From the UHGV virus genome UHGV-1336581: a stretch of 38,564 nucleotides of DNA. One strand, 5' to 3'. Of this stretch, positions 1,589 to 25,165 are shown piece after piece. The notes below the pieces were generated by a model. The model was not told the DNA's origin. It ran no database searches and saw nothing but the letters and a program-made list of their open reading frames with translations. The translations under genes and the position numbers were made by a program. Origin of the DNA: a virus. Each line of letters begins with the position of its first letter. The stretch's first letter is position 1.

Positions 1589-1589
1589 G

Positions 1590-2585: not shown

Positions 2586-2587
2586 TT

Positions 2588-5052: not shown

Positions 5053-5055
5053 TTT

Positions 5056-5532: not shown

Positions 5533-6790
5533 GCAGAGTAACCGCGATTATTTCCGCTCTGGTTACCCGAACCGCGACAAACCCTATACCGAAGACCTGG
5601 GGAAAATCACTTTCCGCCCGTCCATCACAGCTTATGTGGTGGGAGATGACTGCTTTGACCAGCGCGATCGCCTGATTGACGCGCTGAATAAACCCGGTCC
5701 CGGCACGCTTGTCCATCCGACTTACGGTGAGCTGAAAGTCTGTGTTGACGGGGAAGTTCGGGTCAGCACATCGAAGAGTGAAGGGCGTATTGTCCGCTTT
5801 GACCTGAAGTTTGTCGAAGCGGGAGAACTCTCTTACCCCACTTCAGGTGCGGCGACGGCGCAGACGCTGATGTCATCCTGTTCTGCACTGGATGACTGCA
5901 TCAGTGACAGCTTCAGTGGTTTCAGTATCGATGGCGTGGCAGATTTTGTGCAGAACGACGTCGTCGGTAATGCCAGCACAATGCTTGGGTATGTTTCTGA
6001 TGCGATGAAAGTGGTGGATTCTGCCGTATCGGATGCCGCCAGACTGTTGCAGGGGGATATCTCGGTACTTCTGCCGCCGCCATCGTCAGGCAAAAATTTC
6101 GTTGAGCAGGTGCAGAAAATGTGGCGTACCGGGAAACGCCTTTATGGTAACGCCAGCGACCTGGTCACCATGATCAAAACGCTTTCCGGTGTCAGCCTCG
6201 GCAGCGATCTGCAACCGCGCGGCGTCTGGAAAACGGACAGTAAAACCACCGCCACGGCGACGCAGCAGCGTAACGTGGTTGCCAGCACCCTTCGTACGAC
6301 CGCAATCAGCGAAGCGGCGTATGCCGTCACCCGATTGCCTGCGCCAACAACTTCCGCGGTGATGCAGAATGCCGCAGTGGGGCAGGCAACAACACCCGCG
6401 CAGAGCACTGGCTGGCCTTCCGTCACGCATCCGGCACTGAACAATGCACCGGCGGTGAAAAGCACGGTTGACCTGCCGACGTGGGAAGAACTGACTGACA
6501 TTCGCGACACACTGAATACGGCAATTGATAAGGAGTTGTCCCGAACAACCAGTGATGCGCTGTTTCTGGCGCTGCGCCGGGTGAAAGCAGATCTGAATGC
6601 GGATATCAACACGCGCCTTGAACAGTCTGCACGGATCATTCAGCGCACGCCGGATGAGGTTTTACCCGCGCTGGTGCTGGCGGCGACCTGGTTTGATAAC
6701 GCGGCGCGTGACGCGGACATTATCCGGCGTAATGCCATTACGCATCCCGGCTTTGTGCCGGTGATCCCTCTGAAGGTGCCAGTGCAATGA
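5483..6790 (+). CDS. Mu gpN-like tail DNA circulation protein, 5'-truncated at a deletion junction
   Basis: Tail-protein-like sequence begins about 5564 (YPNRDKPYTEDLGKITF...GPGTLVHPTYGEL) in a different frame from the Rz remnant; the ORF's first ~25 codons overlap R and Rz and are unlikely to be native. Followed by the tightly coupled baseplate genes. Confidence 0.5.
   Translation: MQNSKKQAERSERLRYEQSNRDYFRSGYPNRDKPYTEDLGKITFRPSITAYVVGDDCFDQRDRLIDALNKPGPGTLVHPTYGELKVCVDGEVRVSTSKSEGRIVRFDLKFVEAGELSYPTSGAATAQTLMSSCSALDDCISDSFSGFSIDGVADFVQNDVVGNASTMLGYVSDAMKVVDSAVSDAARLLQGDISVLLPPPSSGKNFVEQVQKMWRTGKRLYGNASDLVTMIKTLSGVSLGSDLQPRGVWKTDSKTTATATQQRNVVASTLRTTAISEAAYAVTRLPAPTTSAVMQNAAVGQATTPAQSTGWPSVTHPALNNAPAVKSTVDLPTWEELTDIRDTLNTAIDKELSRTTSDALFLALRRVKADLNADINTRLEQSARIIQRTPDEVLPALVLAATWFDNAARDADIIRRNAITHPGFVPVIPLKVPVQ
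5529..5566 (+). pseudogene. Rz spanin 5' remnant (first ~12 codons only)
   Basis: ATGAGCAGAGTAACCGCGATTATTTCCGCTCTGGTTA encodes MSRVTAIISALV, the start of lambda Rz (ATGA overlap with R stop); similarity ends abruptly near 5566. From memory of lambda Rz, not aligned. Confidence 0.5.
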
Positions 6791-7866
6791 ACGATAACGT
6801 CACGCTACGGGTAAATGGCCGGGAGTGGAATGGCTGGACATCGGTGCGCATCGGTGCCGGTGTTGAACGGCTGGCGCGGGATTTCAGTGTGGAGATCACC
6901 CGCCAGTGGCCGGGAGATGAGGGTATTACCACGCTTCAGTCGCGCATTAAAAACGGTTCAAAAGTGGAGGTGCTGATTGGTGATGAGCTGGTGATCACCG
7001 GCTGGGTGGAGGCGACGCCCGTTCGTTACGATGCCCGTTCGGTCAGCACCGGTATTGCCGGACGTAGTCTGACCGCTGACCTGATTGACTGTGCAGCCGA
7101 ACCGACACAGTTTAACGGACGATCGCTGGTACAGATTGCGCAGGCGCTTGCTGCGCCTTTCGGCATTGAGGTGGTGAACAGCGGTGCGCCGTCGGGTGTT
7201 ATTCCTGATGTCCAGTCTGATCACGGTGAAACGGTGATTGAGGTGATCAACAAAATACTCGGTCAGCAGCAGGCGCTGGCTTACGACGACCCGCACGGCA
7301 GGCTGGTGATTGGTGGTATTGGCTCAACGCGGGCACATACCGCGCTGGTACTTGGGGAAAACATCCTTTCCTGCGATACGGAGAAGAGTATCCGGGAGCG
7401 GTTTTCTGTTTACCAGGTGGCGGGGCAGCGTGCCGGAAACGACGATGATTTCGGTGAGGCCACCACCACCGCGCTGCGGGCCCGCACAGAGGACGCATTT
7501 ATTGCCCGTTACCGTCCGATGTATATCAGGCAGACAGGGCAGGCCACGGGGGCTGGCTGTATTGCGCGTGCTGACTTTGAAGCCCGGCAACGGGCGGCGC
7601 GGACGGATGAAACCACCTATGTGATGCAGGGCTGGCGACAGGGTAACGGTACGCTGTGGCAGCCCAACCAGCGGGTGATTGTCTTCGATCCGGTCTGTGG
7701 TTTCGACAATACCGAACTGCTTGTTTCGGAAGTCACGTTTACTCAGGACCAGAACGGCACCCTGACGGAAATCCGTGTCGGCCCACCTGATGCTTATCTG
7801 CCTGAACCCGAAGCCCCCGGCGCGCGGAAAAAGAAAAAAGCCAGAGTACAGGAGGACCCGTTCTGA
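6787..7866 (+). CDS. Baseplate/tail protein (Mu gp44 P-like)
   Basis: Position and size in a Mu/e14-type baseplate cluster; ATGA start/stop overlap with the upstream gene. Confidence 0.65.
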   Translation: MNDNVTLRVNGREWNGWTSVRIGAGVERLARDFSVEITRQWPGDEGITTLQSRIKNGSKVEVLIGDELVITGWVEATPVRYDARSVSTGIAGRSLTADLIDCAAEPTQFNGRSLVQIAQALAAPFGIEVVNSGAPSGVIPDVQSDHGETVIEVINKILGQQQALAYDDPHGRLVIGGIGSTRAHTALVLGENILSCDTEKSIRERFSVYQVAGQRAGNDDDFGEATTTALRARTEDAFIARYRPMYIRQTGQATGAGCIARADFEARQRAARTDETTYVMQGWRQGNGTLWQPNQRVIVFDPVCGFDNTELLVSEVTFTQDQNGTLTEIRVGPPDAYLPEPEAPGARKKKKARVQEDPF

Positions 7867-8414
7867 TGAGGACGATTGAAGCCATGCAGCGACAACTCCT
7901 CGGCCTGATTGGGCGGGCCGTGGTGAAAAGCATCAGTGCCGCCACGAAATGTCAGACCGTGGATGTGTCTCTGATTGCCGGTGAACCCAAAGCTGGGGTT
8001 GAACATCTTGAACCCTACGGTTTTACCGCAAGGGCAAACAGCGGTGCGGAAGCGGTGGTGTTGTTTCCGGATGGCGACCGTTCTCATGCGGTGGTTGTTA
8101 CGGTGTCGGACCGACGCTACCGCCTAAAAGGGCTGCAGACGGGTGAGGTGGCTGTCTATGACGATCAGGGGCAGTCTGTGACGCTGACCCGGGAGGGGAT
8201 CGTGGTGGACGGTGCAGGTAAAACGATCACGTTTCGCAATGCGCCCAGAGCACGTTTTGAAATGGACCTGGAAGTGACCGGACAGGTGAAAGACCTGTGC
8301 GACTCCGGCGGCACCACCATGTCAGCGATGCGGCTTGCCTATAACGGGCATCGTCACAGAGAGAACGGTCAGGGCAGTAACACCGACAAACCTGATAAAG
8401 CGATGGAGGCATGA
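7866..8414 (+). CDS. Baseplate assembly protein V-like spike (Mu gp45-like)
   Basis: 182-aa protein in the gpV position of the cluster; overlapping stop/start with neighbours. Confidence 0.65.
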   Translation: MRTIEAMQRQLLGLIGRAVVKSISAATKCQTVDVSLIAGEPKAGVEHLEPYGFTARANSGAEAVVLFPDGDRSHAVVVTVSDRRYRLKGLQTGEVAVYDDQGQSVTLTREGIVVDGAGKTITFRNAPRARFEMDLEVTGQVKDLCDSGGTTMSAMRLAYNGHRHRENGQGSNTDKPDKAMEA

Positions 8415-8839
8415 TGGAACTGTGGCTGACGGTGAACGGTAAACGCACCTGCGCCAGCGCACCGCTGGATCCGCTGACCCGCGCCGTGGTGATTTCCCTG
8501 TTTACCTGGCGGCGGGCGGAGCCTGATGACAACGCCGACGTCCCGATGGGATGGTGGGGGGATACCTGGCCTGCGGTACAGAATGACCGTTACGGCTCCC
8601 GGCTGTGGCTGCTTCAGCGCAGCAAACTGACCAATCAACTGGTGCAGACGGTAAAGGGGTATATCCGCGAATGCCTGCAATGGATGATTGATGACGGCGT
8701 GGTGTCCCGTATTGATCTGGATATCCGCCGCACCGGGATTAATGAACTGGGTAACAGTATCACTCTCTGGCGTCGTGACGGACCGGTAATGATTTCTTTT
8801 GATGATCTGTGGAGTGCGATAACGCATGGCGGACAGTGA
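8411..8839 (+). CDS. GP46-family baseplate protein (gpW-like)
   Basis: 142-aa protein between the V-like and J-like genes, translationally coupled to both. Confidence 0.6.
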   Translation: MMELWLTVNGKRTCASAPLDPLTRAVVISLFTWRRAEPDDNADVPMGWWGDTWPAVQNDRYGSRLWLLQRSKLTNQLVQTVKGYIRECLQWMIDDGVVSRIDLDIRRTGINELGNSITLWRRDGPVMISFDDLWSAITHGGQ

Positions 8840-9884
8840 ATTTCAGCGCCCGACGCTGGCAGAAAATATCAGTATGCTCCGTAACGATTTATTCGCCAGG
8901 CTGGACGTCAGCGACACGCTCCGGCGCATGGATGAAGACGTGCGGGCAAAGGTGTATGCGGCGGTGCTGCATACGGTTTACGGTTACATCGATTATCTGG
9001 CAATGAACATGCTGCCTGACCTGTGCGATGAGTCCTGGCTGGCGCGACATGCTGCGATGAAACGGTGTCCGCGCAAGGGGGCCACGGCTGCCAGCGGGTA
9101 TATGCGCTGGGAAGGTGTCAGCGATGGCCTGAAGGTGACCGCCGGGAGTGTTATTCAGCGCGATGACCTGGTGCAGTACACGGCAACTGCCGATGCAACC
9201 AGCTCCGGTGGTGTCCTGCGCGTGCCGATCGCCTGCTCAAGTGCAGGCGCGGTCGGTAACGCTGACGACGGTACGTCATTAATCCTGGTCACGCCGGTCA
9301 ATGGTCTGCCGTCTTCCGGCGTGGCAGATACACTGACAGGCGGATTTGATACTGAAGAGCTGGAAACGTGGCGCGCCCGCGTCATTGAGCGGTATTACTG
9401 GACGCCGCAGGGCGGGGCTGACGGGGACTATGTCGTCTGGGCTAAAGAAGTGCCCGGCATTACCCGCGCATGGGCATACCGTCACTGGATGGGAACGGGG
9501 ACAGTCGGTGTGATGATTGCCAGCAGTGACCTGATTAATCCCATTCCGGAAGAATCAACGGAAACGGCGGCAAGACAACATATCTGGCCACTGGCCCCGG
9601 TGGCAGGCTCTGATTTGTATGTGTTCAGGCCGGTGGCACATACGGTGGATTTTCATATCCGCGTGACGCCGGACACACCAGAAATACGGGCTGCCATTAC
9701 CGCGGAGTTGCGTTCGTTCCTGCTGCGTGATGGTTATCCGCAGGGAGAACTGAAGGTATCGCGTATCAGTGAGGCGATTTCCGGTGCGAACGGGGAATAC
9801 AGCCATCAGTTGCTTGCACCGGTGGACAATATCTCCATTGCGAAAAACGAACTGGCGGTACTGGGGACGATTTCATGGACGTGA
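8826..9884 (+). CDS. Baseplate J-like protein (Mu gp47 / JayE-like)
   Basis: 352-aa protein with the size and position of baseplate J; followed by a YmfQ-like gene and tail fibre genes as in e14. Confidence 0.7.
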
Positions 9885-10459
9885 CAAACGATGATTACAT
9901 CCGCCTGTTATCGGCACTGTTGCCGCCCGGTCCGGCGTGGTCAGCCAGCGATCCGGCGATTGCCGGTGCGGCACCGTCATTAACCCGTGTTCATCAGCGT
10001 GCGGATGCCCTGATGCGGGAGCTGGATCCGCGCACCACCACTGAACTGATAAACCGCTGGGAGCGTCTGTGCGGTCTGCCGGATGAATGTATTCCGGCGG
10101 GAACGCAGACCCTTCGCCAGCGTCAGCAACGGCTGGATGCGAAGGTTAACCTGGCGGGCGGCATCAACGAGGATTTTTACCTTGCACAGCTTGCTGCCCT
10201 GGGGAGACCAGACGCCACCATCACGCGATACGACAAAAGCACGTTCACCTGCTCATCTGCATGTACTGACGCTGTGAACGCGCCGGAATGGCGGTATTAC
10301 TGGCAGGTCAACATGCCAGTCGCCACCAACACCACCTGGATGACATGTGGCGATCCCTGTGATTCCGCACTGCGTATCTGGGGCGACACAGTTGTCGAGT
10401 GTGTGCTTAACAAACTCTGCCCGTCGCATACCTACGTAATTTTTAAATATCCGGAGTAA
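9875..10459 (+). CDS. Tail protein, YmfQ / Mu gp48-like
   Basis: 194-aa protein directly upstream of the tail fibre gene, overlapping the J-like gene stop. Confidence 0.6.
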
Positions 10460-10462: not shown

Positions 10463-11113
10463 ATGCATCGTATAGACACGAAAACCGCGCAGAAGGATAA
10501 GTTCGGCGCGGGTAAGAACGGTTTTACCCGTGGTAACCCCCAGACCGGCACGCCTGCCACCGTTCTGGATGATGACTACTTTGACATGTTGCAGGAAGAA
10601 CTTTGTAGCGTTGTTGAGGCATCCGGTGCCAGTCTGGAGAAGGCGCAGCACGACCAGCTGCTTACCGCGCTTCGTGCGCTGCTGTTAAGCCGCAAGAATC
10701 CGTTTGGCGATATCAAATCGGATGGCACCGTGAAAACGGCTCTCGAAAACCTTGGTTTGGGAGAAGCGGCGAAAAGGGATGTAGGCACAGGAGAAAATCA
10801 GATACCGGATATGTCAGCCTGGAAAAGAAATCCGAGTTCTAATCGCTGGAGAAAATTGCCTGATGGAACCATCATTCAAATGGGAATATCAGCATCAGGG
10901 CCATTAGGCTCACCTGTAAATATCACCCTGCCGATATCTTTCAGCAATACCAATTATTGTGTTGTTGCATCGTACGATAATGCACGGTCAGATGTGTCAA
11001 CAATGGTTAGTTTTGCAGCGTTACCTGTTTCACCATCGCAATTTTCCCTGATGTCATCTGTGACTGAGCAAGGAATAAATCCTTTTGCTTACTGGATTGC
11101 TTTTGGAGATTAA
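10463..11113 (+). CDS. Tail fibre protein: constant N-terminal part fused to variable C-terminal segment (current orientation of the invertible region)
   Basis: The ORF crosses the left recombination site near 10741-10766 (...[10 protein letters not shown]...); the part downstream lies inside the invertible segment. Confidence 0.7.
10741..10766. repeat. Invertase crossover site, left (gix/pix-like, inside tail fibre gene)
   Basis: TCTCGAAAACCTTGGTTTGGGAGAA is an imperfect inverted copy of the site at 12636-12661; 14 contiguous bases identical (TTGGTTTGGGAGAA). Confidence 0.65.
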
Positions 11114-11116
11114 TAA

Positions 11117-11536
11117 ATGGACAGATACTTCTATTCACAAAAAGAAAATGGTTTTTTTACCGATTTAAATAAAGCACCTTCAGATGTTGTTGAGATAACC
11201 ACGGATGAATGGCTGTTACTACTGGATGGTCAGGATAATGGCATGAAAATAGTCAGCAATCAGGAGGGATATCCGGTTTTGACAGAGCAACCACCTTTAT
11301 CAAAAGAAAACCTTATTGCATTGGCGGATTTGAAAAAAAGAAAACTTATTAATGAAGCCAACGAGCACATGAACAGCAGACAATGGCCTGGTAAAGCGGC
11401 TATTGGTCGTCTGAAAAGTGAGGAACTGGCGCAATATAATTTGTGGCTGGATTATCTGGACGCACTGGAACTGGTTGATACCTCCAGTGCTCCAGATATT
11501 GAATGGCCTACGCCTCCGGCAGTTCAGGCCAGATGA
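11117..11536 (+). CDS. Tail fibre assembly protein (Tfa, active-orientation copy)
   Basis: C-terminal ...VDTSSAPDIEWPTPP motif typical of Tfa chaperones; directly follows the fibre gene. Confidence 0.7.
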   Translation: MDRYFYSQKENGFFTDLNKAPSDVVEITTDEWLLLLDGQDNGMKIVSNQEGYPVLTEQPPLSKENLIALADLKKRKLINEANEHMNSRQWPGKAAIGRLKSEELAQYNLWLDYLDALELVDTSSAPDIEWPTPPAVQAR

Positions 11537-12113
11537 CATCCGGCGCGGTGCTGGTATCTGTTGCCGTCACCGCGTCAATGTAATCCAGCACAGCGTTAAG
11601 TCTGGTTGTTTCTGCCTGCGTCAGTTTACGTCCGGCCTGTAATTTCAGCTGAATCAGACTAATGGAAGCCATTGCTGCATCAATCAGTGACTGGCGCTGT
11701 GCTTCTGCCGCGTCTACTGCGGCATTATGCTGTGCCTCAGTATCTGTCACCCATTTCTCACCATCCCATTTATCGTATGGCGTTAACGGGACGATAGTTG
11801 TTGTATTTTCAGGGTAATCACCCGGAGTTGTGATTTCTTTTGATTCTCCCGTTTCGGTGTTATAGACAACTTCACCGCGATGGTCTGGCACATATTCCCA
11901 TGAGTTTAAATCTGCCGAACGGCAGATTGCATAACCAGCCTTATGTGTTCCAGGAGCATCTAAACAGGAATATGCAGGGATACCGACACCCACAGCAAGA
12001 TATTCAGTTGATGCAGAAATATACTCCCGTATCTCACTGTCATAGTTATAAACGGTAATCTCTCCTGCCTTTGTGGCAATAAATTTACTATTTAAGATGG
12101 CGTTATACATCAT
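11508..12113 (-). CDS. Tail fibre assembly protein (alternate Tfa inside the invertible segment)
   Basis: C-terminal ...TDTSTAPDVIWPELPEA; 3' end overlaps the plus-strand tfa convergently, as in Gin/Pin/Cin invertible regions. Confidence 0.7.
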   Translation of the reverse strand: MMYNAILNSKFIATKAGEITVYNYDSEIREYISASTEYLAVGVGIPAYSCLDAPGTHKAGYAICRSADLNSWEYVPDHRGEVVYNTETGESKEITTPGDYPENTTTIVPLTPYDKWDGEKWVTDTEAQHNAAVDAAEAQRQSLIDAAMASISLIQLKLQAGRKLTQAETTRLNAVLDYIDAVTATDTSTAPDVIWPELPEA

Positions 12114-12688
12114 GCAGCCCTCACAATGTAATTAAATGAAATATTACGTGGGCGTGTCTCTGCTGCACCGACAATACTGGTACTCAACCCCGTCGCTGTT
12201 CGTTTGTTATTTTTATTTCCTTCAATCAGACAGTTGTAATCATCATTACCAATTAACGAATTAGTGGCATCAATACCGTCCGGGGACAAGGCATTAGTTG
12301 TAGAACTTAAAGTCAGCATCTCGTCTGAACTTGGAAGATTTTTTAATGGTGTTTCATTGCGAGAAATACCCGCGTAAAAAAAGGACTCATGCCTGTGCGC
12401 TTCAAAAGAGTCATCCTGAAGACTTAGCAAGGTACGTCCCGCATCCACTCCACGCCCGTCATCCCAGCCACGAATAAACTCACCACGTAAATCAGGCAAT
12501 TTATTTGTCGGATAAGCCTTTGCCAGTTCCGGGTATTCTTCAGCAGAAAAAGCGGCACCGTTGCATTTCAGCCAGCCTGTTGGCGGAGTGGCGGAAGGCC
12601 ACGGAACAGGCACGCCAACGGGTAATGCCGAACCTTCTCCCAAACCAACGTTTATGAAAATGCAGAAATAACGAGCAAATGGCATCAT
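12110..12688 (-). CDS. Alternate tail fibre C-terminal segment (silent in this orientation)
   Basis: Minus-strand ORF whose 5' end abuts the right recombination site; the GLGEG junction mirrors GLGEA of the expressed fibre. Codons upstream of the crossover site are not a real N-terminus. Confidence 0.6.
   Translation of the reverse strand: MMPFARYFCIFINVGLGEGSALPVGVPVPWPSATPPTGWLKCNGAAFSAEEYPELAKAYPTNKLPDLRGEFIRGWDDGRGVDAGRTLLSLQDDSFEAHRHESFFYAGISRNETPLKNLPSSDEMLTLSSTTNALSPDGIDATNSLIGNDDYNCLIEGNKNNKRTATGLSTSIVGAAETRPRNISFNYIVRAA
12636..12661. repeat. Invertase crossover site, right (gix/pix-like, just upstream of pin)
   Basis: TTCTCCCAAACCAACGTTTATGAAAA; its reverse complement matches the left site; lies immediately 5' of the invertase gene. 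Confidence 0.65.
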
Positions 12689-13269
12689 TCCTGCTTTTGT
12701 CAGGGATATCTACCATGCTTATTGGCTATGTACGTGTGTCAACAAATTACCAGAACACAGATCTACAACGTAATGCGCTGAACTGTGCAGGATGCGAGCT
12801 GATTTTTGAAGACAAGATAAGCGGTACAAAGTCCGAAAGGCCGGGACTGAAAAAACTGCTCAGGACATTATCGGCAGGTGACACGCTGGTGGTCTGGAAA
12901 CTGGACCGACTGGGGCGCAGTATGCGGCATCTTGTCGTGCTGGTGGAGGAGTTGCGCGAACGAGGCATCAACTTTCGTAGTCTGACGGATTCAATTGATA
13001 CCAGTACCCCAATGGGGCGCTTTTTCTTTCATGTGATGGGGGCCCTGGCTGAAATGGAACGAGAACTGATTGTTGAACGAACAAAAGCTGGACTGGAAGC
13101 TGCTCGCGCACAGGGACGAATTGGTGGACGTCGTCCCAAACTTACACCAGAACAATGGGCGCAGGCCGGACGATTAATTGCAGCAGGAATTCCTCGCCAG
13201 AAGGTGGCGATCATCTATGATGTTGGTGTATCGACACTGTATAAGAAGTTTCCGGTCGGAGATAAATGA
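12679..13269 (+). CDS. pin: Serine recombinase, DNA invertase Pin/Gin/Hin family
   Basis: MLIGYVRVSTNYQNTDLQRNAL...GDTLVVWKLDRLGRSM...HTH C-terminus; near-identical to e14 Pin as I recall it. Real start probably the MLIGY Met about 12 codons in. Confidence 0.9.
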   Translation: MASFLLLSGISTMLIGYVRVSTNYQNTDLQRNALNCAGCELIFEDKISGTKSERPGLKKLLRTLSAGDTLVVWKLDRLGRSMRHLVVLVEELRERGINFRSLTDSIDTSTPMGRFFFHVMGALAEMERELIVERTKAGLEAARAQGRIGGRRPKLTPEQWAQAGRLIAAGIPRQKVAIIYDVGVSTLYKKFPVGDK

Positions 13270-13450
13270 AACCGTAGCATGTCGTATGCAAGATCGTGCG
13301 CGGTTGGCTGGTGAATGTTCGATAGTTCGAGCAATTAATAATTTCCAACCGTTATTGATTTTACGTGTTTTTGTATGAGAGGATTTGCACCTTCTGTAAC
13401 CGACCTTCCATGGCGGCACACTACTGTCTCTAGCACTACTATGTGCAAAA
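13267..13450 (+). repeat. Cassette-boundary repeat, copy A (about 180 bp, starts at the pin stop codon)
   Basis: GAAACCGTAGCATGTCGTATGCAAGATCGTGC...GGCTGGTGAA...GATAG...TTCCAACCGTTAT...GATTTT...TGAGAGGATTT...CCATGGC...GTCTCT...CTATGTGC; aligns along its length with copy C. Confidence 0.7.
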
Positions 13451-13519
13451 AGCTGACGTTTCTATTTTTTTGATTAATGCTCAAGTTTATTTTTCAACGT
13501 TAGCAGGAGCTATCTTAAA

Positions 13520-15856
13520 TTAATCAAAAAGGTCATCCTCCCTCAATCCAAGCCACTTTTCGAGATGCATAAGCAGTATTTTCAGGGCTTCTTCATACTC
13601 TGGGAATTCGTTTAGGTTAATCGAGTCAATTCTAGCTTTGGCAACATCTATGCCAATAAAATCGGCAATTGTTTCTTTGTTGAAACTGTTGTGAGGGGTG
13701 GATACCCTGTCACCATATGTGTAGCTGGTACCTCGGTGCATCAAGCGAGAGATCACGGCTGCGAAACCTTGGTTGGTTTGAATTACTTTCATCACCCACT
13801 CACGCGGTTCATCTATTGAATTCGTATAATCTTTCCAGCGATAAAGCTGATATATGAGATTAGGCTCGGTGAGCAGTGTGTTACCGTCTGCTGCGCGGCC
13901 CCTAATCAATCGCAACCATTCAGCCTTCATTTCCGTAATGGTGTTTAGATCTAACGCTGGCTCGAAGACACCGCTATCCCTATTTTCTCGATCGTCTGGA
14001 TCGCTCAGGTGAATAAGGAGCGAGGAGACAGATAACGCTTTAGTTTTACGGAGAGCGTCGAGAGCCAAATCATTTCGAACATCCTCAGGAAGCCGCTTCA
14101 GGAATTTATTTGTCGCTCGCCATGCTGCCACATATGACGGGTCAAAAGCACCATTTTTCGAGCTTGCAAGTTTTTCAGCAAGTATGAACATCCCCGGTAG
14201 CAAAATAGATGCGTTCTCAGTTGGTAATCGATCGACGGATTCGTCGAGCCTGGCTACGAGCGAGTTCAGTAGGCCATCAGCTTCGACGGTAGTGATTTCC
14301 TCATAGAGTTCTCTCTCTGTTGCTGTTGCATCGAGAAAATCAACAAAGCGACGCTCAGACATTTCTCCGATTGTCGTCTGAAGTTCGAAGTAACGAGGAA
14401 AGTAACGTGATGTGCATACTCGTTTCTCCGCCAGCCACTGGAGATGGAAGCCGTCTGCATAATGTGTTCCTCCATATGCCCATTCGAGAGGAGGAAATAA
14501 GTCTTTGAGCGTGTCACGAACGATATCGCGGCGTTTCTCCGGCACGATCTCAAGAAGCTTCTTAGCTGCTTCTTGGTCTAACTTCTGCCGGTTATTAAAT
14601 GAGTAATGTCTTTCTTGGAGAACCAATTCCCGCTCACGGAACAGTGTAGCGTGGAGATCTGGCTCAAAGACCCGGAGTGTCTCAAGAAGTAAGAAATCAA
14701 CAATGTTTACCTCGAATACATTGCCAATAACATGTAGTGGCATATTTATAGCAATAGACGAGATGAGGCGACGTGCATCGCGCATGTTTTTAAGCCAAGG
14801 CTGGATGCAACCAATGTAAGCGTTACCCCAGCGTGTCTGAGAGAACCCGTTTGCCTCGATTGCGTAAGGGTCTGCAATTTTAGCGAGTTCCTCCTCAAAC
14901 ATACGATGCACGAGCGATGCCGGGACTGCAGGAAGATCAAAACTAGCTTGCACGATTTTCTCAAGGAAGGCTCGACCATCACCGTCAGCAACTGGATCGA
15001 GTGCCCTCTCTACGATACTGGTCTGGAACAGTAGCACAAAAACAATGTTTGGCAGATTAGCATTCGCTTTTACTTGACGAAGTAGCATCCTGATCTGCTC
15101 TGGCTCGAGTCGGTCAATGTCGTCGACGAAGACGACCAGCGGACGCTCAAGTTCTCGAAGACGAGCCTCCAGCGATCTGCGTACCTTGTCGAGTGGCTCG
15201 CCACTATGGTCACGCCCGAGATATGTGAGTATGCGTCCAACAAGAGGAATTCCGACTGAGAGTAGTGAAAGAACAGCCGCAACCCCTGCGGCTGTGGGAA
15301 GGTCAAAGCCAATAGCTGACGCGATCGCTACAACGGAAGCATTAGTTAGCACTGTAGAGACTAGGAAGCTTGAACTACCGACCTCTTTAAGAGGTTTGCC
15401 GACCCCTATGAGGATTGCTCCGTAGCGTCGTAGTGCTTCGGCACGGTCAAGCTCAGCCTTCGAATGTTCACCTCTTAGGGAATTTGCTATCTGACCAAAT
15501 AGCGCGCCAGTGATGGCATCACCGTCTCCCCATTGCCATGGATTGAAATCGAGCCAGTTCGCCCCGTTGTTCTTGGCATCGAGCTGTTCGGTAATGAGAT
15601 TTTTTAGTGATGATTTGCCAAAGCCCCATCCTCCTCGGATAGCAAACACTCGGCCTTCGCGCAAACTAAGCTCTGAAAGCACATCAGCTATGCGAGCTGC
15701 AAATTCGGTCCTTCTAAGGCGATCTTCGGATGCTCGCCGAATTGGGGCCTCCGCCCCGATCCCCTCGTCCGGTCGCTCGTTCTTTATCACGTCAGCATTA
15801 GGCTTCGCGCGACGATGAGCGCGCCATGCCGTCAAGCGGAACAATAGCTTATTCAT
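13520..15856 (-). CDS. KAP-family P-loop NTPase with membrane insertion (Tmn-like candidate defence protein)
   Basis: Walker A GGWGFGKSS about 80 aa from the N-terminus, followed by hydrophobic helices inserted in the NTPase domain (VLTNASVVAIASAIGF...VLSLLSVGIPLVGRIL), a KAP hallmark; 778 aa. Confidence 0.7.
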   Translation of the reverse strand: MNKLLFRLTAWRAHRRAKPNADVIKNERPDEGIGAEAPIRRASEDRLRRTEFAARIADVLSELSLREGRVFAIRGGWGFGKSSLKNLITEQLDAKNNGANWLDFNPWQWGDGDAITGALFGQIANSLRGEHSKAELDRAEALRRYGAILIGVGKPLKEVGSSSFLVSTVLTNASVVAIASAIGFDLPTAAGVAAVLSLLSVGIPLVGRILTYLGRDHSGEPLDKVRRSLEARLRELERPLVVFVDDIDRLEPEQIRMLLRQVKANANLPNIVFVLLFQTSIVERALDPVADGDGRAFLEKIVQASFDLPAVPASLVHRMFEEELAKIADPYAIEANGFSQTRWGNAYIGCIQPWLKNMRDARRLISSIAINMPLHVIGNVFEVNIVDFLLLETLRVFEPDLHATLFRERELVLQERHYSFNNRQKLDQEAAKKLLEIVPEKRRDIVRDTLKDLFPPLEWAYGGTHYADGFHLQWLAEKRVCTSRYFPRYFELQTTIGEMSERRFVDFLDATATERELYEEITTVEADGLLNSLVARLDESVDRLPTENASILLPGMFILAEKLASSKNGAFDPSYVAAWRATNKFLKRLPEDVRNDLALDALRKTKALSVSSLLIHLSDPDDRENRDSGVFEPALDLNTITEMKAEWLRLIRGRAADGNTLLTEPNLIYQLYRWKDYTNSIDEPREWVMKVIQTNQGFAAVISRLMHRGTSYTYGDRVSTPHNSFNKETIADFIGIDVAKARIDSINLNEFPEYEEALKILLMHLEKWLGLREDDLFD

Positions 15857-16427
15857 CCCACAACATCTCCAAAAGTATATGTTTCAAGCGTTCTATTGTT
15901 AGAAGCCTCACCGATTGGACTTTGTCTACGACAGCTAACTGAAAACAGCTCGTTGCTGAAATTGCAGGCCAGTATAGCGGTTCTGCCTACTCAACGTGAA
16001 ATGGCTCGTGGGCAACTACATCAACTGAGCGAGAATACTAAGGTGAAACTGGGTGTGTGAATTGGTGCAAGAGAAATGCTTCCCATAATTCAAGATATCC
16101 CAATATAAGTACATTCCGAATGTCTGCTTCATACCTTGAGATATTCGACAAACTTTTTATGGAAGAAAGGCATTTGTGTCTTGTTGGTATATGGATGCTG
16201 TGAAAGAGCAGAATGCCACTTGTTGAGGGAGATAGATGATGCACAGCAAATTAAGCTGATGAAAAAAACAAAAAGCTACATCTTCTGTGGACTTTCATGT
16301 CACCAAGAGTAGCAACTCCCTAGCGTCTCATCACCGTCTGGTTGGTGTCCTGCTGAGACTGCTAACTTCCTGTTTTTTGATGTTGTATTTACACTGTCCA
16401 ATCATGATTGGCGGGCTGGCGGGAGTT

Positions 16428-16465
16428 GAAACCGTAGCACGTCGTATGCAAGATCGTGCTGCGGT
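16428..16465 (+). repeat. Cassette-boundary repeat, copy B (truncated, about 38 bp core)
   Basis: GAAACCGTAGCACGTCGTATGCAAGATCGTGCTGCGG matches the first ~35 bp of copies A and C, then diverges; lies just 3' of the minus-strand GIY-YIG gene. Confidence 0.6.
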
Positions 16466-16486
16466 TTATGTTTATCACTTGAAGAT

Positions 16487-17356
<870 letters not shown>

Positions 17357-17446
17357 CTAACCCTTTGAATTTACATAGCGCAAAAAGATACCTTTCCTCA
17401 TAATGTGAGCTAATTTTATGTTTCGTTTGATGATCGGGTCGGTCTC

Positions 17447-17630
17447 GAAACCCGTAGCCACGTCGTATGCAAGAACGTGCTACGACTGGCTGGTGAACTT
17501 CCGATAGTGCGAGTATTGAATGATTTCCAACTGTTATCGATTTTGCGTATTTTTTGCATGAGAGGATTTTTACCTCCTCCCACCGATCCTCCATGGCTTT
17601 ACGCCAGTGTCTCTGGTCTGCTATGTGCCA
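17447..17630 (+). repeat. Cassette-boundary repeat, copy C (about 180 bp)
   Basis: GAAACCCGTAGCCACGTCGTATGCAAGAACGTGCTACG...GGCTGGTGAAC...GATAG...TTCCAACTGTTAT...TGAGAGGATTT...CCATGGC...GTCTCT...CTATGTGCC; same orientation as copy A. Confidence 0.7.
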
Positions 17631-17676
17631 AGAGCGGACTTTGCAAAATGGGGGTTATTTCAATCAAAACGTAACG

Positions 17677-18621
17677 TCACAACCAGCCGACGCTCTCTCG
17701 CCATTTATAATTAGTAACTTTATCATTTTCGCTTATTTTTTTAGATATAGAGCGCGGCTCTCTTCCTAGATACTCAGATATTTCTGTCGGGGACAAATCA
17801 AAATCGACAAGCATGACTCTAAGTTTTTCCATTTCCTTTAAAGTCCAAGGCTTGCCATAATTTTCATAAAGAGATACCTTATGCTCCCTAATAGTTCGCT
17901 TTCTCTGAGTTTCACTTTCCCTCTGAAAAATCTCGCTTTTAAATTGTGAACGGAACTCTTTACAGAAGTTGTTATCAGTTTTTTTGTTATATAGATTGCT
18001 AAAAATAAGCTGGGATGCCGGGTCTAAATCAGGTGTGTTAATAATGAAAACTTTGACCTTTTCCATATAGGGATATTCAATTTTACCCAATATGCTTAAT
18101 TGCTTTATATTAAAAAAACCTCTCAAATCAAAAGATTTAATGAGCTTTGATTGGATTACACTTTCAATCCTGCTTGCATTTGAATAACAGTACTTTGCCA
18201 TTGGAAGGGCCCATACTACCAGTTGAGGAATATATTTTTCTAATGCAATGCTCTGCCAATCAGTATCAAAGGTTTGGCTTTTTGCTAGCATGTTTTTCGG
18301 CAAATCAGAATACATTGTGGTAGATGCCCATATCTTATAATCATTCGCCAAGGCTTGATAGTATTTTGTGTGGTTATGAATTTTATAAGCTGACATGAAG
18401 CGATAAACGTCTTCGTCGTGACCAGCGTCGTAAATTGTTCGATTTCCTCTAAGATAACCGTCGTAATGTTCGGTTATCCTTCTACCTACATTACAACTTA
18501 CCCCAACGTAAACCACACGACTGAAAAGTCCTTTATGGACAATAAGATAAACTCCGCTACAGCCAGATTTCCTGGCCTCTGATAGAGAACCTAAAAATCT
18601 CCATTCCATAATTAAATCCAT
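17677..18621 (-). CDS. GIY-YIG nuclease domain protein with C-terminal HTH-like region (AT-rich)
   Basis: GVYLIVHKGLFSRVVYVGVSCNVGRRITEH (GIY-YIG-like with R and E); C-terminal WTLKEMEKLRVMLVDFDLSPTEISEYLGREPRSISKKI looks like a helix-turn-helix; visibly AT-rich. Confidence 0.55.
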   Translation of the reverse strand: MDLIMEWRFLGSLSEARKSGCSGVYLIVHKGLFSRVVYVGVSCNVGRRITEHYDGYLRGNRTIYDAGHDEDVYRFMSAYKIHNHTKYYQALANDYKIWASTTMYSDLPKNMLAKSQTFDTDWQSIALEKYIPQLVVWALPMAKYCYSNASRIESVIQSKLIKSFDLRGFFNIKQLSILGKIEYPYMEKVKVFIINTPDLDPASQLIFSNLYNKKTDNNFCKEFRSQFKSEIFQRESETQRKRTIREHKVSLYENYGKPWTLKEMEKLRVMLVDFDLSPTEISEYLGREPRSISKKISENDKVTNYKWRESVGWL

Positions 18622-19273: not shown

Positions 19274-20488
19274 GTGAAACTCAATGCCCGTCAAATAGAC
19301 ACTGCCAAGCCAAAAGAGAAGGCTTACAAGCTGGCTGATGGTGGTGGTCTGTATCTCCTGGTAAAACCTAGTGGAGGAAAATACTGGCGCTTTAAATATC
19401 GTGTAGCTGGTAAAGAGAAGCTGTTAGCACTAGGTGTGTATCCTGAAGTTACCTTGGCTGATGCTCGTGCAAAACGTGAAGAAGCTAAAAGGGGTATCGC
19501 TGGGGGTATCGATCCGATGGAAGCGAAACGAGAGGAAAAGATTGCCCGGGAAACGCAGTTAAACAATACCTTCAAAGATATTGCCCTTGAGTGGCACAGC
19601 AGCAAATTAAAAAAATGGTCTGCTGGTTATGCTTCAGATATCCTCGAAGCCTTCAACAAAGATGTGTTCCCTTACATTGGCAAAAAACCAATTGCCGAAA
19701 TCAAACCACTTGAACTTCTGAATGTGCTGCGACGCATCGAGGGGCGCGGTGCTACAGAAAAAGCCAAAAAAGTGAGGCAGCGGTGCGGGGAAGTTTTCCG
19801 CTATGCAATAGTCACTGGTCGCGCAGAGTATAACCCTGCCCCAGATCTTACTAGCGCGATGCAAGGCCATGAATCTAATCATTATCCTTTCCTCACAGCC
19901 AAAGAATTGCCTGATTTTTTCAAGGCATTGTCCAGTTACTCAGGAAGTGCATTGGTTGTTATGGCGGCTCGTCTACTGATTATCACTGGTTTGCGAACTG
20001 GCGAACTGCGCGGTGCATTATGGGATGAAATCGATCTCAACAAGGCTATCTGGGAGATACCTGCTTCACGGATGAAAATGCGTCGCCCTCATGTGGTGCC
20101 TTTGTCTAAGCAGGCTCTTTCTCTTATTGGGCAGATTAAAGAATTAACTGGTAATTATCCGCTTATGTTTCCCGGCCGTAATGATCCAAGGAAAACAATG
20201 AGCGAGGCTAGCATAAACCAAGTATTTAAACGCATCGGCTATAACGGAAAGGTTACTGGTCATGGATTCCGGCACACCATGAGCACGATTTTACATGAGC
20301 AGGGCTATAACACCGCGTGGATAGAAACGCAGCTTGCACACGTTGATAAGAACTCAATTCGTGGCACGTACAATCATGCGCAATATCTGGACGGGCGGCG
20401 CGAGATGCTCCAGTGGTACGCCGACTATATGGATTCGCTCGAACATGGCGGTAACGTGGTGCATGGCAAGTTCGGAAAATGTGGATGA
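19274..20488 (+). CDS. int: Tyrosine integrase, P4-type (N-terminal arm-binding domain)
   Basis: LNARQIDTAKPKEKAYKLADGGGLYLLVKPSGGKYWRFKYRVAGKEKLLALGVYPEVTLADARAKREEAK is the P4-integrase N-terminal signature; C-terminal HxxR...Y catalytic region (GHGFRHTMSTIL...HV...RGTYNH); GTG start, adjacent to the tRNA fragment. Confidence 0.9.
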   Translation: MKLNARQIDTAKPKEKAYKLADGGGLYLLVKPSGGKYWRFKYRVAGKEKLLALGVYPEVTLADARAKREEAKRGIAGGIDPMEAKREEKIARETQLNNTFKDIALEWHSSKLKKWSAGYASDILEAFNKDVFPYIGKKPIAEIKPLELLNVLRRIEGRGATEKAKKVRQRCGEVFRYAIVTGRAEYNPAPDLTSAMQGHESNHYPFLTAKELPDFFKALSSYSGSALVVMAARLLIITGLRTGELRGALWDEIDLNKAIWEIPASRMKMRRPHVVPLSKQALSLIGQIKELTGNYPLMFPGRNDPRKTMSEASINQVFKRIGYNGKVTGHGFRHTMSTILHEQGYNTAWIETQLAHVDKNSIRGTYNHAQYLDGRREMLQWYADYMDSLEHGGNVVHGKFGKCG

Positions 20489-20610
20489 CTGGTTGCGTAT
20501 ACAGTAGTAGACTTTGAGCGACGAAAGAAAAGGCTGTGTCTAGGGTCGCTCCCGAAAATCCGTACACCTCGACGGACTGGTACAGCCACTACAGTAGAGG
20601 ACGCTGAGGT

Positions 20611-21414
20611 GTGCGTATGATTGATATTCATGCCGAATTAAACGAATACAAAAAAGATTTTATTTCTTTACGTGAATTTCTTGAGGTCGTGCTTAAGGTC
20701 GCTGGTGATGATTATGATGTTTCAGATGTCATAACTTGGATACTCAGGAGAATAAGCGGAGAACATATCCGCCTGTACACAGTAAATGAATTTAAGCTGT
20801 TGGAATCTTTTTGTAACCCGTATCGGGATGAATTTGATTATGATGTTCTTTATAGAAATCTGAATGCGGTTCGGAAACGTGGTTGTTTACCTGGTGAGAG
20901 GGATGAAAATGGTTTTCTGGTGTCCGGTTATTGGGAAGATCCCGAATTTGAGAACATTGGATTTATAAGGGGTGAAATTTTCGCAATTTTTCCCGATGTC
21001 CTTGACGCGTTAACGAAGCTGGAAGGCGCTAACTCTTCTGAAAATGACGAGGCACAAGGACGCGATATTGAAAAGAAAGAGTTGCGTACAGAGGATGATT
21101 TATTATCCCAAATCGCAATGCTGGAAAAAGAAAACGCAGAGTTAAGGGCAAGGATAGAGCAGTTAGAGCAAGAGCGCCCGATACACTTATATAAATACTG
21201 GGATAAAGACCCATTAGCTAAGGCTATTGAGATTAGAAACAGAGAGTGGGCCAATTACGATCCAGAAAATGATTTTGCCACCAGGGGAAATCAAGAAGCG
21301 ATAACCAGGGAGCTTAAGCAGTGGGGGGCAAGTAATGCACTTGCAACGCTCATAGAGAGGACTGCCTGCCCTATTAACCGAGACAACAGCCAAAAGAACG
21401 CAAAGCCGGATTAA
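20611..21414 (+). CDS. Hypothetical protein (coiled-coil segment)
   Basis: 267-codon ORF between int and alpA with a heptad-like stretch (LSQIAMLEKENAELRARIEQLEQE); no family recognised. Confidence 0.5.
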   Translation: MRMIDIHAELNEYKKDFISLREFLEVVLKVAGDDYDVSDVITWILRRISGEHIRLYTVNEFKLLESFCNPYRDEFDYDVLYRNLNAVRKRGCLPGERDENGFLVSGYWEDPEFENIGFIRGEIFAIFPDVLDALTKLEGANSSENDEAQGRDIEKKELRTEDDLLSQIAMLEKENAELRARIEQLEQERPIHLYKYWDKDPLAKAIEIRNREWANYDPENDFATRGNQEAITRELKQWGASNALATLIERTACPINRDNSQKNAKPD

Positions 21415-21428
21415 CGCACCATACCGCA

Positions 21429-21572
21429 TACCCTGAGGGTGATTTACTGTTACCCTGAGGGTATTTTTTTATCTTCCCCGTCAATTTTACCATCACCCTT
21501 AGGGTAGATTTCCTCCCGATTACCATCACCCTTAGGGTTAATTTCCTTCCGGTAACCATTAGGCCTGAGGGT
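21429..21572. promoter_or_regulatory. Five copies of interrupted palindrome (A)CCCT(G/T)AGGG(T) upstream of alpA; candidate operator array
   Basis: TACCCTGAGGGT at about 21429 and 21451, CACCCTTAGGGT at about 21494 and 21527, GCCTGAGGGT at about 21562. Confidence 0.45.
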
Positions 21573-21641
21573 ATGAAAATATTCGTTATTTCTGTGCCAT
21601 GATTACCTCGTCAAATTGAGTAGACGTTATGAGGTAAATAT

Positions 21642-21839
21642 ATGTCAAATACGCTTATTCGTTTAACAGAAGTTCAGCGTAGAACTGGATATAGCAAGGC
21701 ATGGATTTATCACCTTATGGGGCAAGGTAAATTTCCTGCATCAGTTAAAATTGGCTCGCGAGCTATTGCTTTCGTTGAGAGTGAAATTGACGAGTGGATT
21801 AATCAGCGTATTGCGGAATCACGCGGAACAGCTACCTGA
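21642..21839 (+). CDS. alpA: AlpA-family transcriptional regulator
   Basis: 65-aa HTH protein, LIRLTEVQRRTGYSKAWIYHLMGQGKFPASVKIGSRAIAFVESEIDEWI matches the AlpA/prophage CP4-57 regulator family. Confidence 0.85.
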   Translation: MSNTLIRLTEVQRRTGYSKAWIYHLMGQGKFPASVKIGSRAIAFVESEIDEWINQRIAESRGTAT

Positions 21840-21916
21840 TTAAATGGCTACGGGGCTATTGCCCCCAGCTATCCACCAGCAAATAAAAGTAACTTAATTC
21901 GATAGCAGGAGTTTTT

Positions 21917-22717
21917 ATGAAATTTCCAAAAACGCCCGTACAGGGGCGGGGCTTCGTTCGGCCTGAAAACCAGAATCTGCAAAATTTCGGCGAAATTATC
22001 CCGATTATTTCCGGCGTTATTGGCGGGAGTGAAACCACTATTGTTAGCGCCAGAGCGTTACATAAGGCGTTAGGTGTAGGGCGCGTTTTCCGTTCGTGGA
22101 TCAAGGGGCGCATTGAAGAATACGGGTTCACGGAAGGCGTGGATTATGAGGTTGTTGAATATTTGAGCCGACCCGATCCGGTGAGCGCAAAATCTCGCCA
22201 GCAAACCGCTCTTGAGTACATCATCACAGTGAACATGGCGAAAGAACTGGCGATGGTCGAACGTACCGAACAGGGCCGCGCCGTTCGCCAGTACTTTATC
22301 AAATGCGAGGAGGAGCTACACAAGGTTGCGCCTGTTCGTTCCGCAGCGTTACGCCGGGAACTGAAAGCCCGTATCACAGTTGCCAGCTACTTTAAGCCAA
22401 TGTGTGCCGCGCTGGAGGCGTACCGGGCTGAACTGGGTAAAAACACACTCCAGCACCACTACACCACGGAAGCGAGCATGCTGGCGCGTATCGTGCTGGG
22501 TGGCATGACTGCAAAACAGTGGGCACTGGCGAACGGCATTACAGGCGAACCACGCGACCACATGAGCACGTTGCAGCTTGAGCACCTTTCTTACCTTGAG
22601 CAGAGCAATATCACGCTGATTGAGTTAGGCCAGGACTACCACCAGCGGAAGGCTGAATTAATTCGTCTTTCGCAGCGTTGGTTAGCCCGTCGCATGGAGG
22701 AAAACAGCCATGTGTAA
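21917..22717 (+). CDS. Phage antirepressor-like DNA-binding protein (Ant/Rha/KilA-N-type N-terminal domain)
   Basis: N-terminal TIVSARALHKALGVGRVFRSWIKGRIEEYGFTEGVDYEV resembles antirepressor-type DNA-binding domains; domain assignment is tentative. Confidence 0.45.
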   Translation: MKFPKTPVQGRGFVRPENQNLQNFGEIIPIISGVIGGSETTIVSARALHKALGVGRVFRSWIKGRIEEYGFTEGVDYEVVEYLSRPDPVSAKSRQQTALEYIITVNMAKELAMVERTEQGRAVRQYFIKCEEELHKVAPVRSAALRRELKARITVASYFKPMCAALEAYRAELGKNTLQHHYTTEASMLARIVLGGMTAKQWALANGITGEPRDHMSTLQLEHLSYLEQSNITLIELGQDYHQRKAELIRLSQRWLARRMEENSHV

Positions 22718-23430
22718 CGCTCTGACCGTTACAAAAAGAGAAAGCGCCCCGTTGCCGGAGCGCCTTTGTGAACGAATAGCCTACTGCGCCATATTGCTTA
22801 CTGTCTACGAGGCAGATTATAGCGTTGTGGTCGCACAGAGTGAAGGCGCTGATCACCGTTACTACAGCACGCCAGAAATGCAGAATATTTTGCTGCAAAA
22901 TGTCGTTGATCACACTGTCCGAAAAGCAAAAAATTTTGCTGGTGGCGCGACTGATGCGATTTTGTCAGGTCGCCAGGTGCTGATCAATCTGATGTCTGAT
23001 TTCGTTCTGGATAAAACAAAGGCGACCGCAGAGGGCCGCCAGTGGGAAAGCTACATACTTGAACGCATCGCCAACAATGCCAGATTTGCGGCTGGTGGGC
23101 AATGTGTCAGCTTTGCACCAATGACTCTATGTTTAACTGAGGGTCATTATGGTGAATATGCTGGCTTGCTGGTGGGCTATTCCTGCTCTTTAACATCGCC
23201 ATGCCGCGATGTTTTCCAGGTATGCGATCCCATTTTTGTGCGCCTGTACTCTTTAAGGAATTTCTCAAGGATAAACGCACAGGGCGCGAATCTGTTTGAC
23301 TCATGCTCGTACGCTATCTTTCTGCGCTGTCTTTTCCGTGCCGGTGATGGTGTATTGGTTGATTCTTTGTTGGTCATGGCGCTGCCCTGTAAAACGATGC
23401 ACCGTAGTCCCTCACACCACGGCGCTGGTG
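22710..23430 (+). CDS. Hypothetical protein, probably disrupted (5' part of a 485-codon open frame)
   Basis: First ~150 codons look protein-like; downstream the same frame becomes Cys/Ser/Arg-rich and runs through a convergent minus-strand gene and a divergent promoter region without a stop. End coordinate is arbitrary. Confidence 0.3.
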
Positions 23431-23434
23431 ATGG

Positions 23435-25161: not shown

Positions 25162-25165
25162 AACC

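Follow-up and report, generated by a model that had tools for sequence, protein, structure and literature searches.

PifA, the F plasmid protein that excludes phage T7 and gives the KAP family of P-loop NTPases its 'P', has been known for some 50 years; to our knowledge its mechanism is unresolved and no structure of it exists. A defence role for KAP NTPases was reportedly predicted in 2004, and its validation is said to have begun only in 2025–2026; Tmn, a single-gene P-loop NTPase with two transmembrane (TM) helices, was reportedly described as a defence protein in 2020 (Gao). Here we examine a gene of this general kind in the virus genome UHGV-1336581, a stretch of 38,564 nucleotides referred to throughout, at its whole length, as the window. 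On balance we favour reading the gene, at 13520–15856, as encoding a stand-alone, inner-membrane-anchored KAP NTPase, a distant full-length homologue of PifA that forms part of the accessory defence cargo of a defective prophage, at the end where the tail-fibre genes and pin lie. That the gene has an anti-phage role of some kind seems to us quite likely, judging from its sequence and surroundings.

Three groups of described proteins invite comparison. PifA acts at the membrane and brings about depolarization and nucleotide leakage (as summarized in PMC13001434, PMC8594841), and it responds to the T7 proteins gp1.2 and gp10, with membrane permeability lesions (PMC13552941, PMC13001434, PMC8594841). 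Tmn was termed a KAP NTPase in papers of 2023–2025, including a 2023 preprint that also described its synergy with Gabija. However, a 2026 study counts it among the YobI-family NTPases, which it calls 'phylogenetically distinct' from KAP, and gives the Tmn mechanism as RIIB sensing, ATP burn, Mg2+ export and plasmolysis without depolarization, by a decameric assembly, an action that the same study contrasts with the depolarization and nucleotide leakage of PifA (PMC13001434). Finally, EF_KAP and three other KAP NTPases encoded beside small serine recombinases protect Enterococcus in a Walker-B-dependent manner; protection by this class also needs a C-terminal region of unknown function and is seen at both low and high multiplicity of infection (MOI) (PMC13552941).

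The gene and its NTPase domain

The gene is an uninterrupted open reading frame (ORF) with an ATG start on the minus strand, and it fills positions 13520–15856 exactly, where the initial annotation had placed it. Its features are as follows.

13520–15856 (stop codon included), minus strand: gene for a PifA-like KAP-family NTPase of 778 residues (from the ORF, Pfam KAP_NTPase, PADLOC PifA and hhalign)
15611–15634, minus strand: Walker A motif (P-loop), GGWGFGKS, residues 75–82 (read in the translation)
15119–15139, minus strand: Walker B motif, LVVFVDD, residues 240–246, followed by an invariant DRLEP (read in the translation)
14747–15712, minus strand: KAP NTPase domain as delimited by Pfam, residues 49–370
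15215–15370, minus strand: hydrophobic hairpin within the P-loop domain, residues 163–214, with putative TM1 at residues 164–182 and putative TM2 at residues 192–210 (from hydropathy)
13523–14611, minus strand: all-alpha middle and C-terminal region, residues 416–778, a putative sensor or partner-binding domain (from the structure model and the PifA-clade alignment)

Membership in the KAP family, which the initial annotation had proposed, is borne out by the Pfam KAP_NTPase profile (PF07693): residues 49–370 match profile positions 1–288 of 293 at 141.5 bits (cut-off 20; E = 4.4e-41), far above chance level. In an alignment of 100 sequences from three clades, W77, G78, G80 and K81 of the Walker A motif are invariant, as are D246, D248, R249 and L250 of the Walker B region. 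The gene product can thus be described, as far as its sequence allows, as a KAP-family P-loop NTPase with both Walker motifs intact. Within the clade the NTPase core is conserved best and variation is greatest in the N-terminal tail and the C-terminal region; for the latter, such variability is what would be expected of a sensor. A Pfam search matched no domain to residues 416–778.

A hydrophobic hairpin between the Walker motifs

Between Walker A and Walker B lies a 52-residue double hydrophobic block with two hydropathy peaks (Kyte–Doolittle means over 19 residues of 1.9 and 2.1), in line with the TM helices that had been proposed at this place; the TM call is based on hydropathy and on conservation of the hydrophobic block only. 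Lysine and arginine are abundant in the flanks of the block, and a short loop without charged residues, FDLPTAAGV, joins its two halves; a helical hairpin whose two ends are both cytoplasmic would fit these features.

The hydrophobic block, together with a Walker A-to-B spacer of 162–167 residues (mostly 165), is present in all full-length homologues analysed, which are at least 42% identical to the window protein. An exhaustive search of 1.84 billion cluster representatives recovered 14,303 relatives at E ≤ 1e-3, of which 2,432 also passed E ≤ 1e-30. The 119 best representatives (27–62% identity, at least 650 residues, recognizable Walker A and B) were analysed further, and in 88 of them a spacer of 161–192 residues goes together with a hydrophobic block 35 residues or more in length. 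A first sample had suggested that the hairpin was confined to a narrow clade, a conclusion that the exhaustive search overturned. Because the hairpin is found in 88 of 119 representatives, the membrane-hairpin form is the common state, and PifA and a Paraburkholderia-centred clade are hairpin-less variants.

Relationship to PifA

The initial annotation was right to assign the candidate to the KAP NTPases but left its nearest characterized relative, PifA, unnamed. The PADLOC PifA profile (PDLC02361) is the top PADLOC match of the window protein and covers nearly all of it in one stretch, residues 32–758 against profile positions 4–708 of 720 (E = 7.3e-79, 264 bits). By BLASTP the protein is 25% identical to F PifA over residues 34–402 (E = 2e-21), with an additional weak C-terminal piece, and 23% identical to a Serratia PifA over its full length (E = 2e-25). 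When a 46-sequence alignment of the window clade was compared with a 34-sequence PifA alignment by hhalign, 681 columns were aligned at 99.7% probability (E = 7.6e-26, 22% identity; positions 27–764 against 9–744), the C-terminal region included as far as column 764. These comparisons suggest that the protein has the whole PifA architecture, C-terminal region and all. Since true PifA proteins score 963–982 bits against the profile that gives the window protein 264, it is best taken as a distant, paralogue-level relative of PifA and not as an orthologue.

The two proteins share the KAP NTPase fold, are similar in length (741 residues in F PifA, 778 here) and are both encoded on mobile elements, and PifA acts at or with the membrane. 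They differ in the region between the Walker motifs, where F PifA has a spacer of 145 residues with a maximal hydropathy of 1.27 as against 165 residues and peaks of 1.9 and 2.1 in the window protein. They differ as well in the kind of element that carries them, PifA being found on a conjugative plasmid whereas the location here is a prophage or chromosomal island.

Comparison with Tmn and other defence systems

The label 'Tmn-like', which the initial annotation had attached to the gene, follows the usage of 2023–2025 and does not hold as a family assignment. Neither Tmn nor YobI models matched the protein at E ≤ 1 in the hidden Markov model libraries of PADLOC, Pfam and NCBIfam, a comparison made at the level of profiles, and on the strength of these three libraries Tmn membership was rejected. 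Distant plasmid matches annotated as 'P-loop NTPase', considered as possible Tmn proteins, all turned out to be pifC–pifA operons. Tmn does share a layout with the window protein: a single gene, a P-loop NTPase, two TM helices inserted after Walker A and helical sensor regions. However, a TM hairpin in the P-loop domain and a single-gene layout are also found in KAP proteins and do not discriminate for Tmn. The distance from Walker A to Walker B, moreover, is about 210 residues in Tmn (from the published residue numbers of Tmn-25; PMC13001434) as against 165 in the window protein. Taken at the level of sequence, the protein should not be filed under Tmn. That PADLOC-type detectors treat 'tmn' and 'PifA' as separate entries is gathered from their separate listing in the 2023 preprint.

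The EF_KAP class, described in the RADS study, resembles the window gene in pairing a KAP NTPase that has TM helices with a long C-terminal region to which no function is assigned, and in lying beside a small serine recombinase gene. The RADS-class KAP NTPases come from Firmicutes or metagenomes and have other C-terminal regions; they are set apart here by description. EF_KAP itself has one N-terminal and one intradomain TM helix, whereas the window protein has an intradomain hairpin. The recombinase gene of the window, pin, has its 3′ end at 13269 and that of the KAP gene is at 13520, so that the two are adjacent but convergent and would not be co-transcribed.

Other systems are more remote. 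RdrA of RADAR has about 10% identity to the window protein and no sequence-level match to it; RdrA is soluble and is partnered by the RdrB adenosine deaminase, whereas the window protein has no conserved partner gene. The PADLOC profiles QatA (E = 1.6e-9) and PDC-S20 (E = 1.2e-11) match far more weakly than PifA, and only over the N-terminal KAP-type NTPase domain. The NCBIfam QatA model stays below threshold (37 bits vs a cut-off of 600), and no QatB, QatC or QatD neighbours were found around the window gene.

Predicted structure

An initial AlphaFold2 (AF2) model from a shallow alignment had a predicted local distance difference test (pLDDT) score of 63 and was superseded by a model built on the 100-sequence alignment, with a pLDDT of 81.8 and a predicted template modelling score of 0.74. 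In the latter, pLDDT falls below 50 just at residues 15–35 and in the hairpin insert (residues 152–219), while residues 416–778 are helical with values mostly of 88–97. The model has an NTPase core of AAA+/STAND-like fold and, after it, an all-alpha region. Sequence search found no solved structure. RdrA, Cdc6/ORC and STAND proteins are among the structurally closest ATPases, followed by BrxC, TnsC, MalT, CED-4/Apaf-1, an NLR protein and Avs3; Cdc6/ORC and the proteins from BrxC to Avs3 are nucleotide-dependent switches that oligomerize. Among the predicted viral structures of the fold library there was nothing close.

Distribution and neighbours of the homologues

The identical protein was found on 14 contigs and in two of 5,426 complete Escherichia coli genomes. 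In both of these genomes the gene comes next after pinE, where a prophage that combines an HK97-type head with a Mu-type tail ends. Relatives at 67–88% identity occur in Serratia, Pectobacterium, Klebsiella, Enterobacter, Burkholderia, Ralstonia and Pseudomonas, the top 120 matches all being at least 67% identical. Close relatives across many genera, combined with rarity in E. coli, make for a patchy distribution that points to horizontal spread. At the nucleotide level, similarity to enterobacterial homologues extends about 50 bp past the 3′ end of the ORF and 150–270 bp past its 5′ end (to approximately 16130).

A genome scan yielded 76 loci, 43 of them with full-length homologues at 42% identity or more. 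When the flanking ORFs were clustered in search of a conserved partner gene, no family occurred in more than four of the 43 loci; by this measure the gene appears to stand alone, which agrees with its initial description as single-gene cargo. P4-type integrases lie within 10 kb at about 10 loci, and a pin-like gene lies near the homologue at one or two (L022 and L045), so that a general linkage to serine recombinases was rejected. At L022, from Pseudomonas jinjuensis, a pin-like recombinase (12360–12938) with 39% identity to the window Pin directly follows a 66%-identical homologue, the only clear recombinase adjacency outside E. coli.

The 129 closest neighbours (three per locus) include GajA, ZorD, defence-type reverse transcriptases, PtuA/AriA-type ATPases and AbiJ/AbiLi, along with type I restriction-modification (R-M) proteins, OLD-TOPRIM proteins, integrases, transposases and some ordinary metabolic genes. 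GajA and ZorD each occur twice in this set (within L012–L053); GajA next to homologues, taken with the synergy of Tmn and Gabija, might reflect co-occurrence of the family with Gabija. Homologues in Providencia sp. PAZ2 (L037), Massilia sp. Mn16-1_5 (L045) and Halomonas sulfidaeris (L049) are split or partial and may be pseudogenes.

The cargo slot downstream of pin

The features that surround the KAP gene are listed here in order of position.

12679–13269, plus strand: pin-type small serine recombinase (invertase), convergent with the KAP gene (Pfam Resolvase and HTH_7)
13267–13460, no strand: boundary repeat R1, a degenerate hairpin core starting at the pin stop codon plus a linker of about 160 bp resembling the lambdoid b region, between the convergent pin and KAP genes
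15857–16426, minus strand: 5′ non-coding region of the KAP gene, with a GGAG ribosome-binding site about 10 nt before the ATG and a promoter-like CTAACA-17-TATACT at 15874–15902
16325–16466, no strand: boundary repeat R2, a strong hairpin (16427–16466) plus 100 bp in common with the boundary of a type II R-M module in strain B20127
16487–17311, minus strand: GIY-YIG gene beside the KAP gene, a full-length match to PADLOC PD-T4-3 (E = 6.9e-140)
17448–17640: third copy of the boundary repeat, R3
17677–18621, minus strand: 314-residue ORF with a GC content of 0.36 and a GIY-YIG-like motif, VYVGVS...GRRITEH

Annotated homologues of pin begin at 12715, and relatives of the gene are annotated as pinE. 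The place next to pin had been called a hotspot, and comparison with other E. coli agrees: it holds McrA in e14/K-12 and in one further strain, a GIY-YIG gene alone in O157:H7 86-24, and elsewhere a GIY-YIG gene (PD-T4-3) with a type II R-M system, hypothetical proteins with a RES-domain protein, or a hypothetical protein with a TrlF-like ATPase. In O157:H7 and B20127 the GIY-YIG gene comes straight after pin with no KAP gene; the window instead has about 3.16 kb, the KAP gene included, set between two repeat copies that each contain a hairpin. From these arrangements the position downstream of pin can be taken as a true variable cargo slot. The 5′ region of the KAP gene (15857–16426) holds no ORF for a regulator.

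PD-T4-3 is also known as CMoRE, a validated single-gene type IV restriction enzyme that cuts DNA modified with 5-hydroxymethylcytosine or its glucosylated form (PMC12923530). McrA, in the same slot in e14, is likewise a cutter of modified cytosine. The 314-residue ORF, which matched nothing in Pfam or PADLOC, sits between R3 and the integrase of the next island, a position occupied elsewhere by a HEPN-domain protein or another hypothetical; it is a candidate for an uncharacterized cargo or defence gene.

The repeat consists of a hairpin core with a stem of about 12 bp, beginning at the pin stop codon, and a flank of about 160 bp that matches the phage lambda b region (24162–24357, 85%) and also occurs in 192 lambdoid or Stx phage records. 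It is present in 5,379 of the 5,426 E. coli genomes, at a median of two places per genome; K-12 has a 67-bp piece of it, located between ykgJ and ecpE, that carries the annotation of a pseudogene for a 'capsid protein'. The R2 hairpin is predicted to fold on either strand, at −23.6 kcal/mol for the plus strand (z = −4.7) and −17.4 kcal/mol for the minus strand (z = −5.4), and by sequence looks like a bidirectional terminator. A structured RNA and a Pin recombination site were both considered for the repeats and rejected: Rfam returned just a sub-threshold match to CssrB (E = 0.21), and the repeats are lambdoid b-region sequence with a terminator-like core. They probably serve as a conserved linker for the exchange of accessory cassettes by homologous recombination.

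Surrounding prophage and a second island

The prophage part of the window (1–10459) encodes RusA, KilA-N, a DUF968/HNH protein, the antiterminator Q, a holin and a 158-residue ORF, followed directly by Mu-type DNA-circulation and baseplate genes. Terminase, portal, capsid, sheath and tube genes are absent from it, whereas the relative L001 has the full set. By gene content, then, the prophage is a deleted lambdoid–Mu hybrid, a cryptic e14-like remnant that has retained its cargo. The tail-fibre segment beside pin (approximately 10770–12653) is inverted in L001 relative to the window and differs likewise between the metagenomic contigs L004 and L005, which carry the identical KAP protein; given these differences among relatives, Pin-mediated inversion appears to be active in populations that carry this protein.

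A low-GC island (0.29–0.35) at 2975–4725 lies between the antiterminator Q and holin genes, the position of stx in Stx phages. It contains ORFs of 175 residues (3204–3731) and 214 residues (3710–4354, with a PF00912 transglycosylase domain), neither of which matched PADLOC. A second, separate integrative island occupies 19274–38564 and is flanked by paoD/paoC in relatives. It carries a P4-type tyrosine integrase (19274–20488), an int-alpA RNA (Rfam RF02996, 20533–20600), AlpA, AntA, an Icd-like gene, a RepA-family helicase, a ProQ/FinO protein, PerC and a GapS1-family protein (36109–37707).

Proposed function and alternatives

What was computed for this gene is its family, its motifs, the hydrophobic insert, homology to PifA from end to end, the lack of a conserved partner, and neighbourhoods with defence and mobile genetic element genes. 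By analogy with the described systems we infer a topology, a trigger, oligomerization, a membrane effector action and anti-phage activity, as follows. The protein would be held in the inner membrane by the two-helix hairpin between Walker A and Walker B, with the core and the C-terminal region of about 360 residues in the cytoplasm. The variable C-terminal region would recognize a phage protein, comparable to the response of PifA to T7 gp1.2 and gp10. Recognition would flip the NTPase switch and lead to oligomerization, as in RdrA rings, Cdc6/ORC and STAND proteins, and the hairpins, now clustered, would impair membrane integrity or ion balance until phage development stops, by abortive infection or growth arrest. 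This chain of C-terminal sensor, NTPase-driven oligomeric switch and membrane perturbation through hairpins draws on homology and on the fold, and we offer it tentatively, as one that could easily prove wrong.

Several findings weigh against a PifA-like membrane defence. Identity to PifA is just 22–25%, and with a PifA-model score so far below that of true PifA proteins any transfer of function from PifA is weak. F PifA lacks the hairpin altogether. The repressor gene pifC lies directly upstream of pifA at all five plasmid pifA loci inspected, and tblastn with PifC found no match in the window or at any of the 76 homologous loci; the gene should be classed under PifA only as a distant relative without PifC. 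The phage range of PifA is itself very narrow, and some authors question whether defence is its primary role (PMC13552941, PMC8594841). The TM segments are predicted from hydropathy, and the AF2 model is unreliable in this insert. The validated KAP protein of Enterococcus is reported to be non-abortive (PMC13552941), so the abortive step may not apply here. Promoter-like sites in the 5′ region are not commoner than in shuffled sequence. Finally, the gene is rare, as noted above for E. coli, and no copy of it was found in 50,697 phage records.

The reported non-abortive action of EF_KAP suggests a different division of labour, in which the NTPase would regulate the C-terminal region and the latter would block phage replication without killing the cell. 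Like the EF_KAP class, which protects at low and high MOI and needs both Walker B and its C-terminal region (PMC13552941), the window gene adjoins a small serine recombinase and encodes a long C-terminal region without a known domain. However, that region is homologous to the one in PifA, an abortive-infection protein, the recombinase linkage recurs at just one or two of 43 loci, and the gene is convergent with pin; we regard this alternative as unlikely. PifA homology also bears on whether a Tmn-like mode might operate outside the Tmn family, with a large ring of protomers that senses a phage protein, burns ATP, exports Mg2+ and causes plasmolysis without depolarization or leakage. Such a mode would draw on the gross layout common to both proteins (single gene, two TM helices after Walker A, helical sensor arms; PMC13001434, 2023 preprint), on a comparable hairpin in the window protein, and on GajA beside homologues at two loci, Gabija being the system with which Tmn synergizes. 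Yet the whole-length homology is to PifA, which depolarizes and leaks nucleotides where Tmn does not (PMC13001434), and the three profile libraries returned no Tmn or YobI match, which leaves this mode quite improbable in our view.

We are similarly doubtful that the gene is not primarily anti-phage but a membrane NTPase switch that serves its mobile element, for example through exclusion of other elements or addiction, or that regulates a host membrane complex, with any effect on phages a by-product. Doubts about restriction as the primary role of PifA (PMC13552941, PMC8594841) would allow for this, as would the ordinary metabolic neighbours at many homologous loci and the high conservation of the family in Gamma- and Betaproteobacteria (the 67% floor among the top 120 matches), unusual for a fast-evolving sensor. 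These points have to be set against the repeated siting of the family beside validated defence genes and in variable cargo slots of mobile elements, against its patchy, horizontally spread distribution (two of 5,426 E. coli genomes, yet relatives at 70–80% identity in Serratia, Pectobacterium, Burkholderia and Ralstonia), and against the validation of other KAP NTPases as defences (PMC13552941). A multi-gene system that joins the KAP gene to the adjacent GIY-YIG genes (PD-T4-3 and the 314-residue ORF) or to pin is largely refuted, and we give it hardly any weight. It is true that three minus-strand cargo genes stand in series at 13520–18621 and that the GIY-YIG gene is present in all contigs with the identical protein that reach past the 5′ flank. 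Neither GIY-YIG gene, however, lies within 10 kb of any of the 43 homologues in other species; PD-T4-3 is a validated system of a single gene (PMC12923530) and follows pin directly, without a KAP gene, in O157:H7 and B20127; and a strong bidirectional hairpin parts the two genes in the window.

Implications for the KAP family

Beyond this one gene, membrane-hairpin PifA-like KAP NTPases could form a large class of self-contained sensor-effectors, comprising hundreds of 50%-identity clusters, in which NTP-driven oligomerization gathers the hairpins into a pore or ion conduit. Its members would be integral-membrane counterparts of PifA, or its ancestors, and would link PifA mechanistically with Tmn. 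We consider this speculative and rather more apt to fail than to hold. If true, the hairpin class might explain why the hairpin-less PifA came to need a membrane partner. The membrane-hairpin branch, by far the larger one among PifA-like proteins, is uncharacterized, and the E. coli gene, compact, partner-free and equipped with an upstream region of its own, is an entry point to it. A negative result would leave it one more ordinary accessory gene with a generic annotation. A positive one would widen the reach of PifA-type immunity, provide a tractable model for a P-loop switch coupled to the membrane, and add a case of stacked prophage defences, with pin, the KAP gene and CMoRE in succession.

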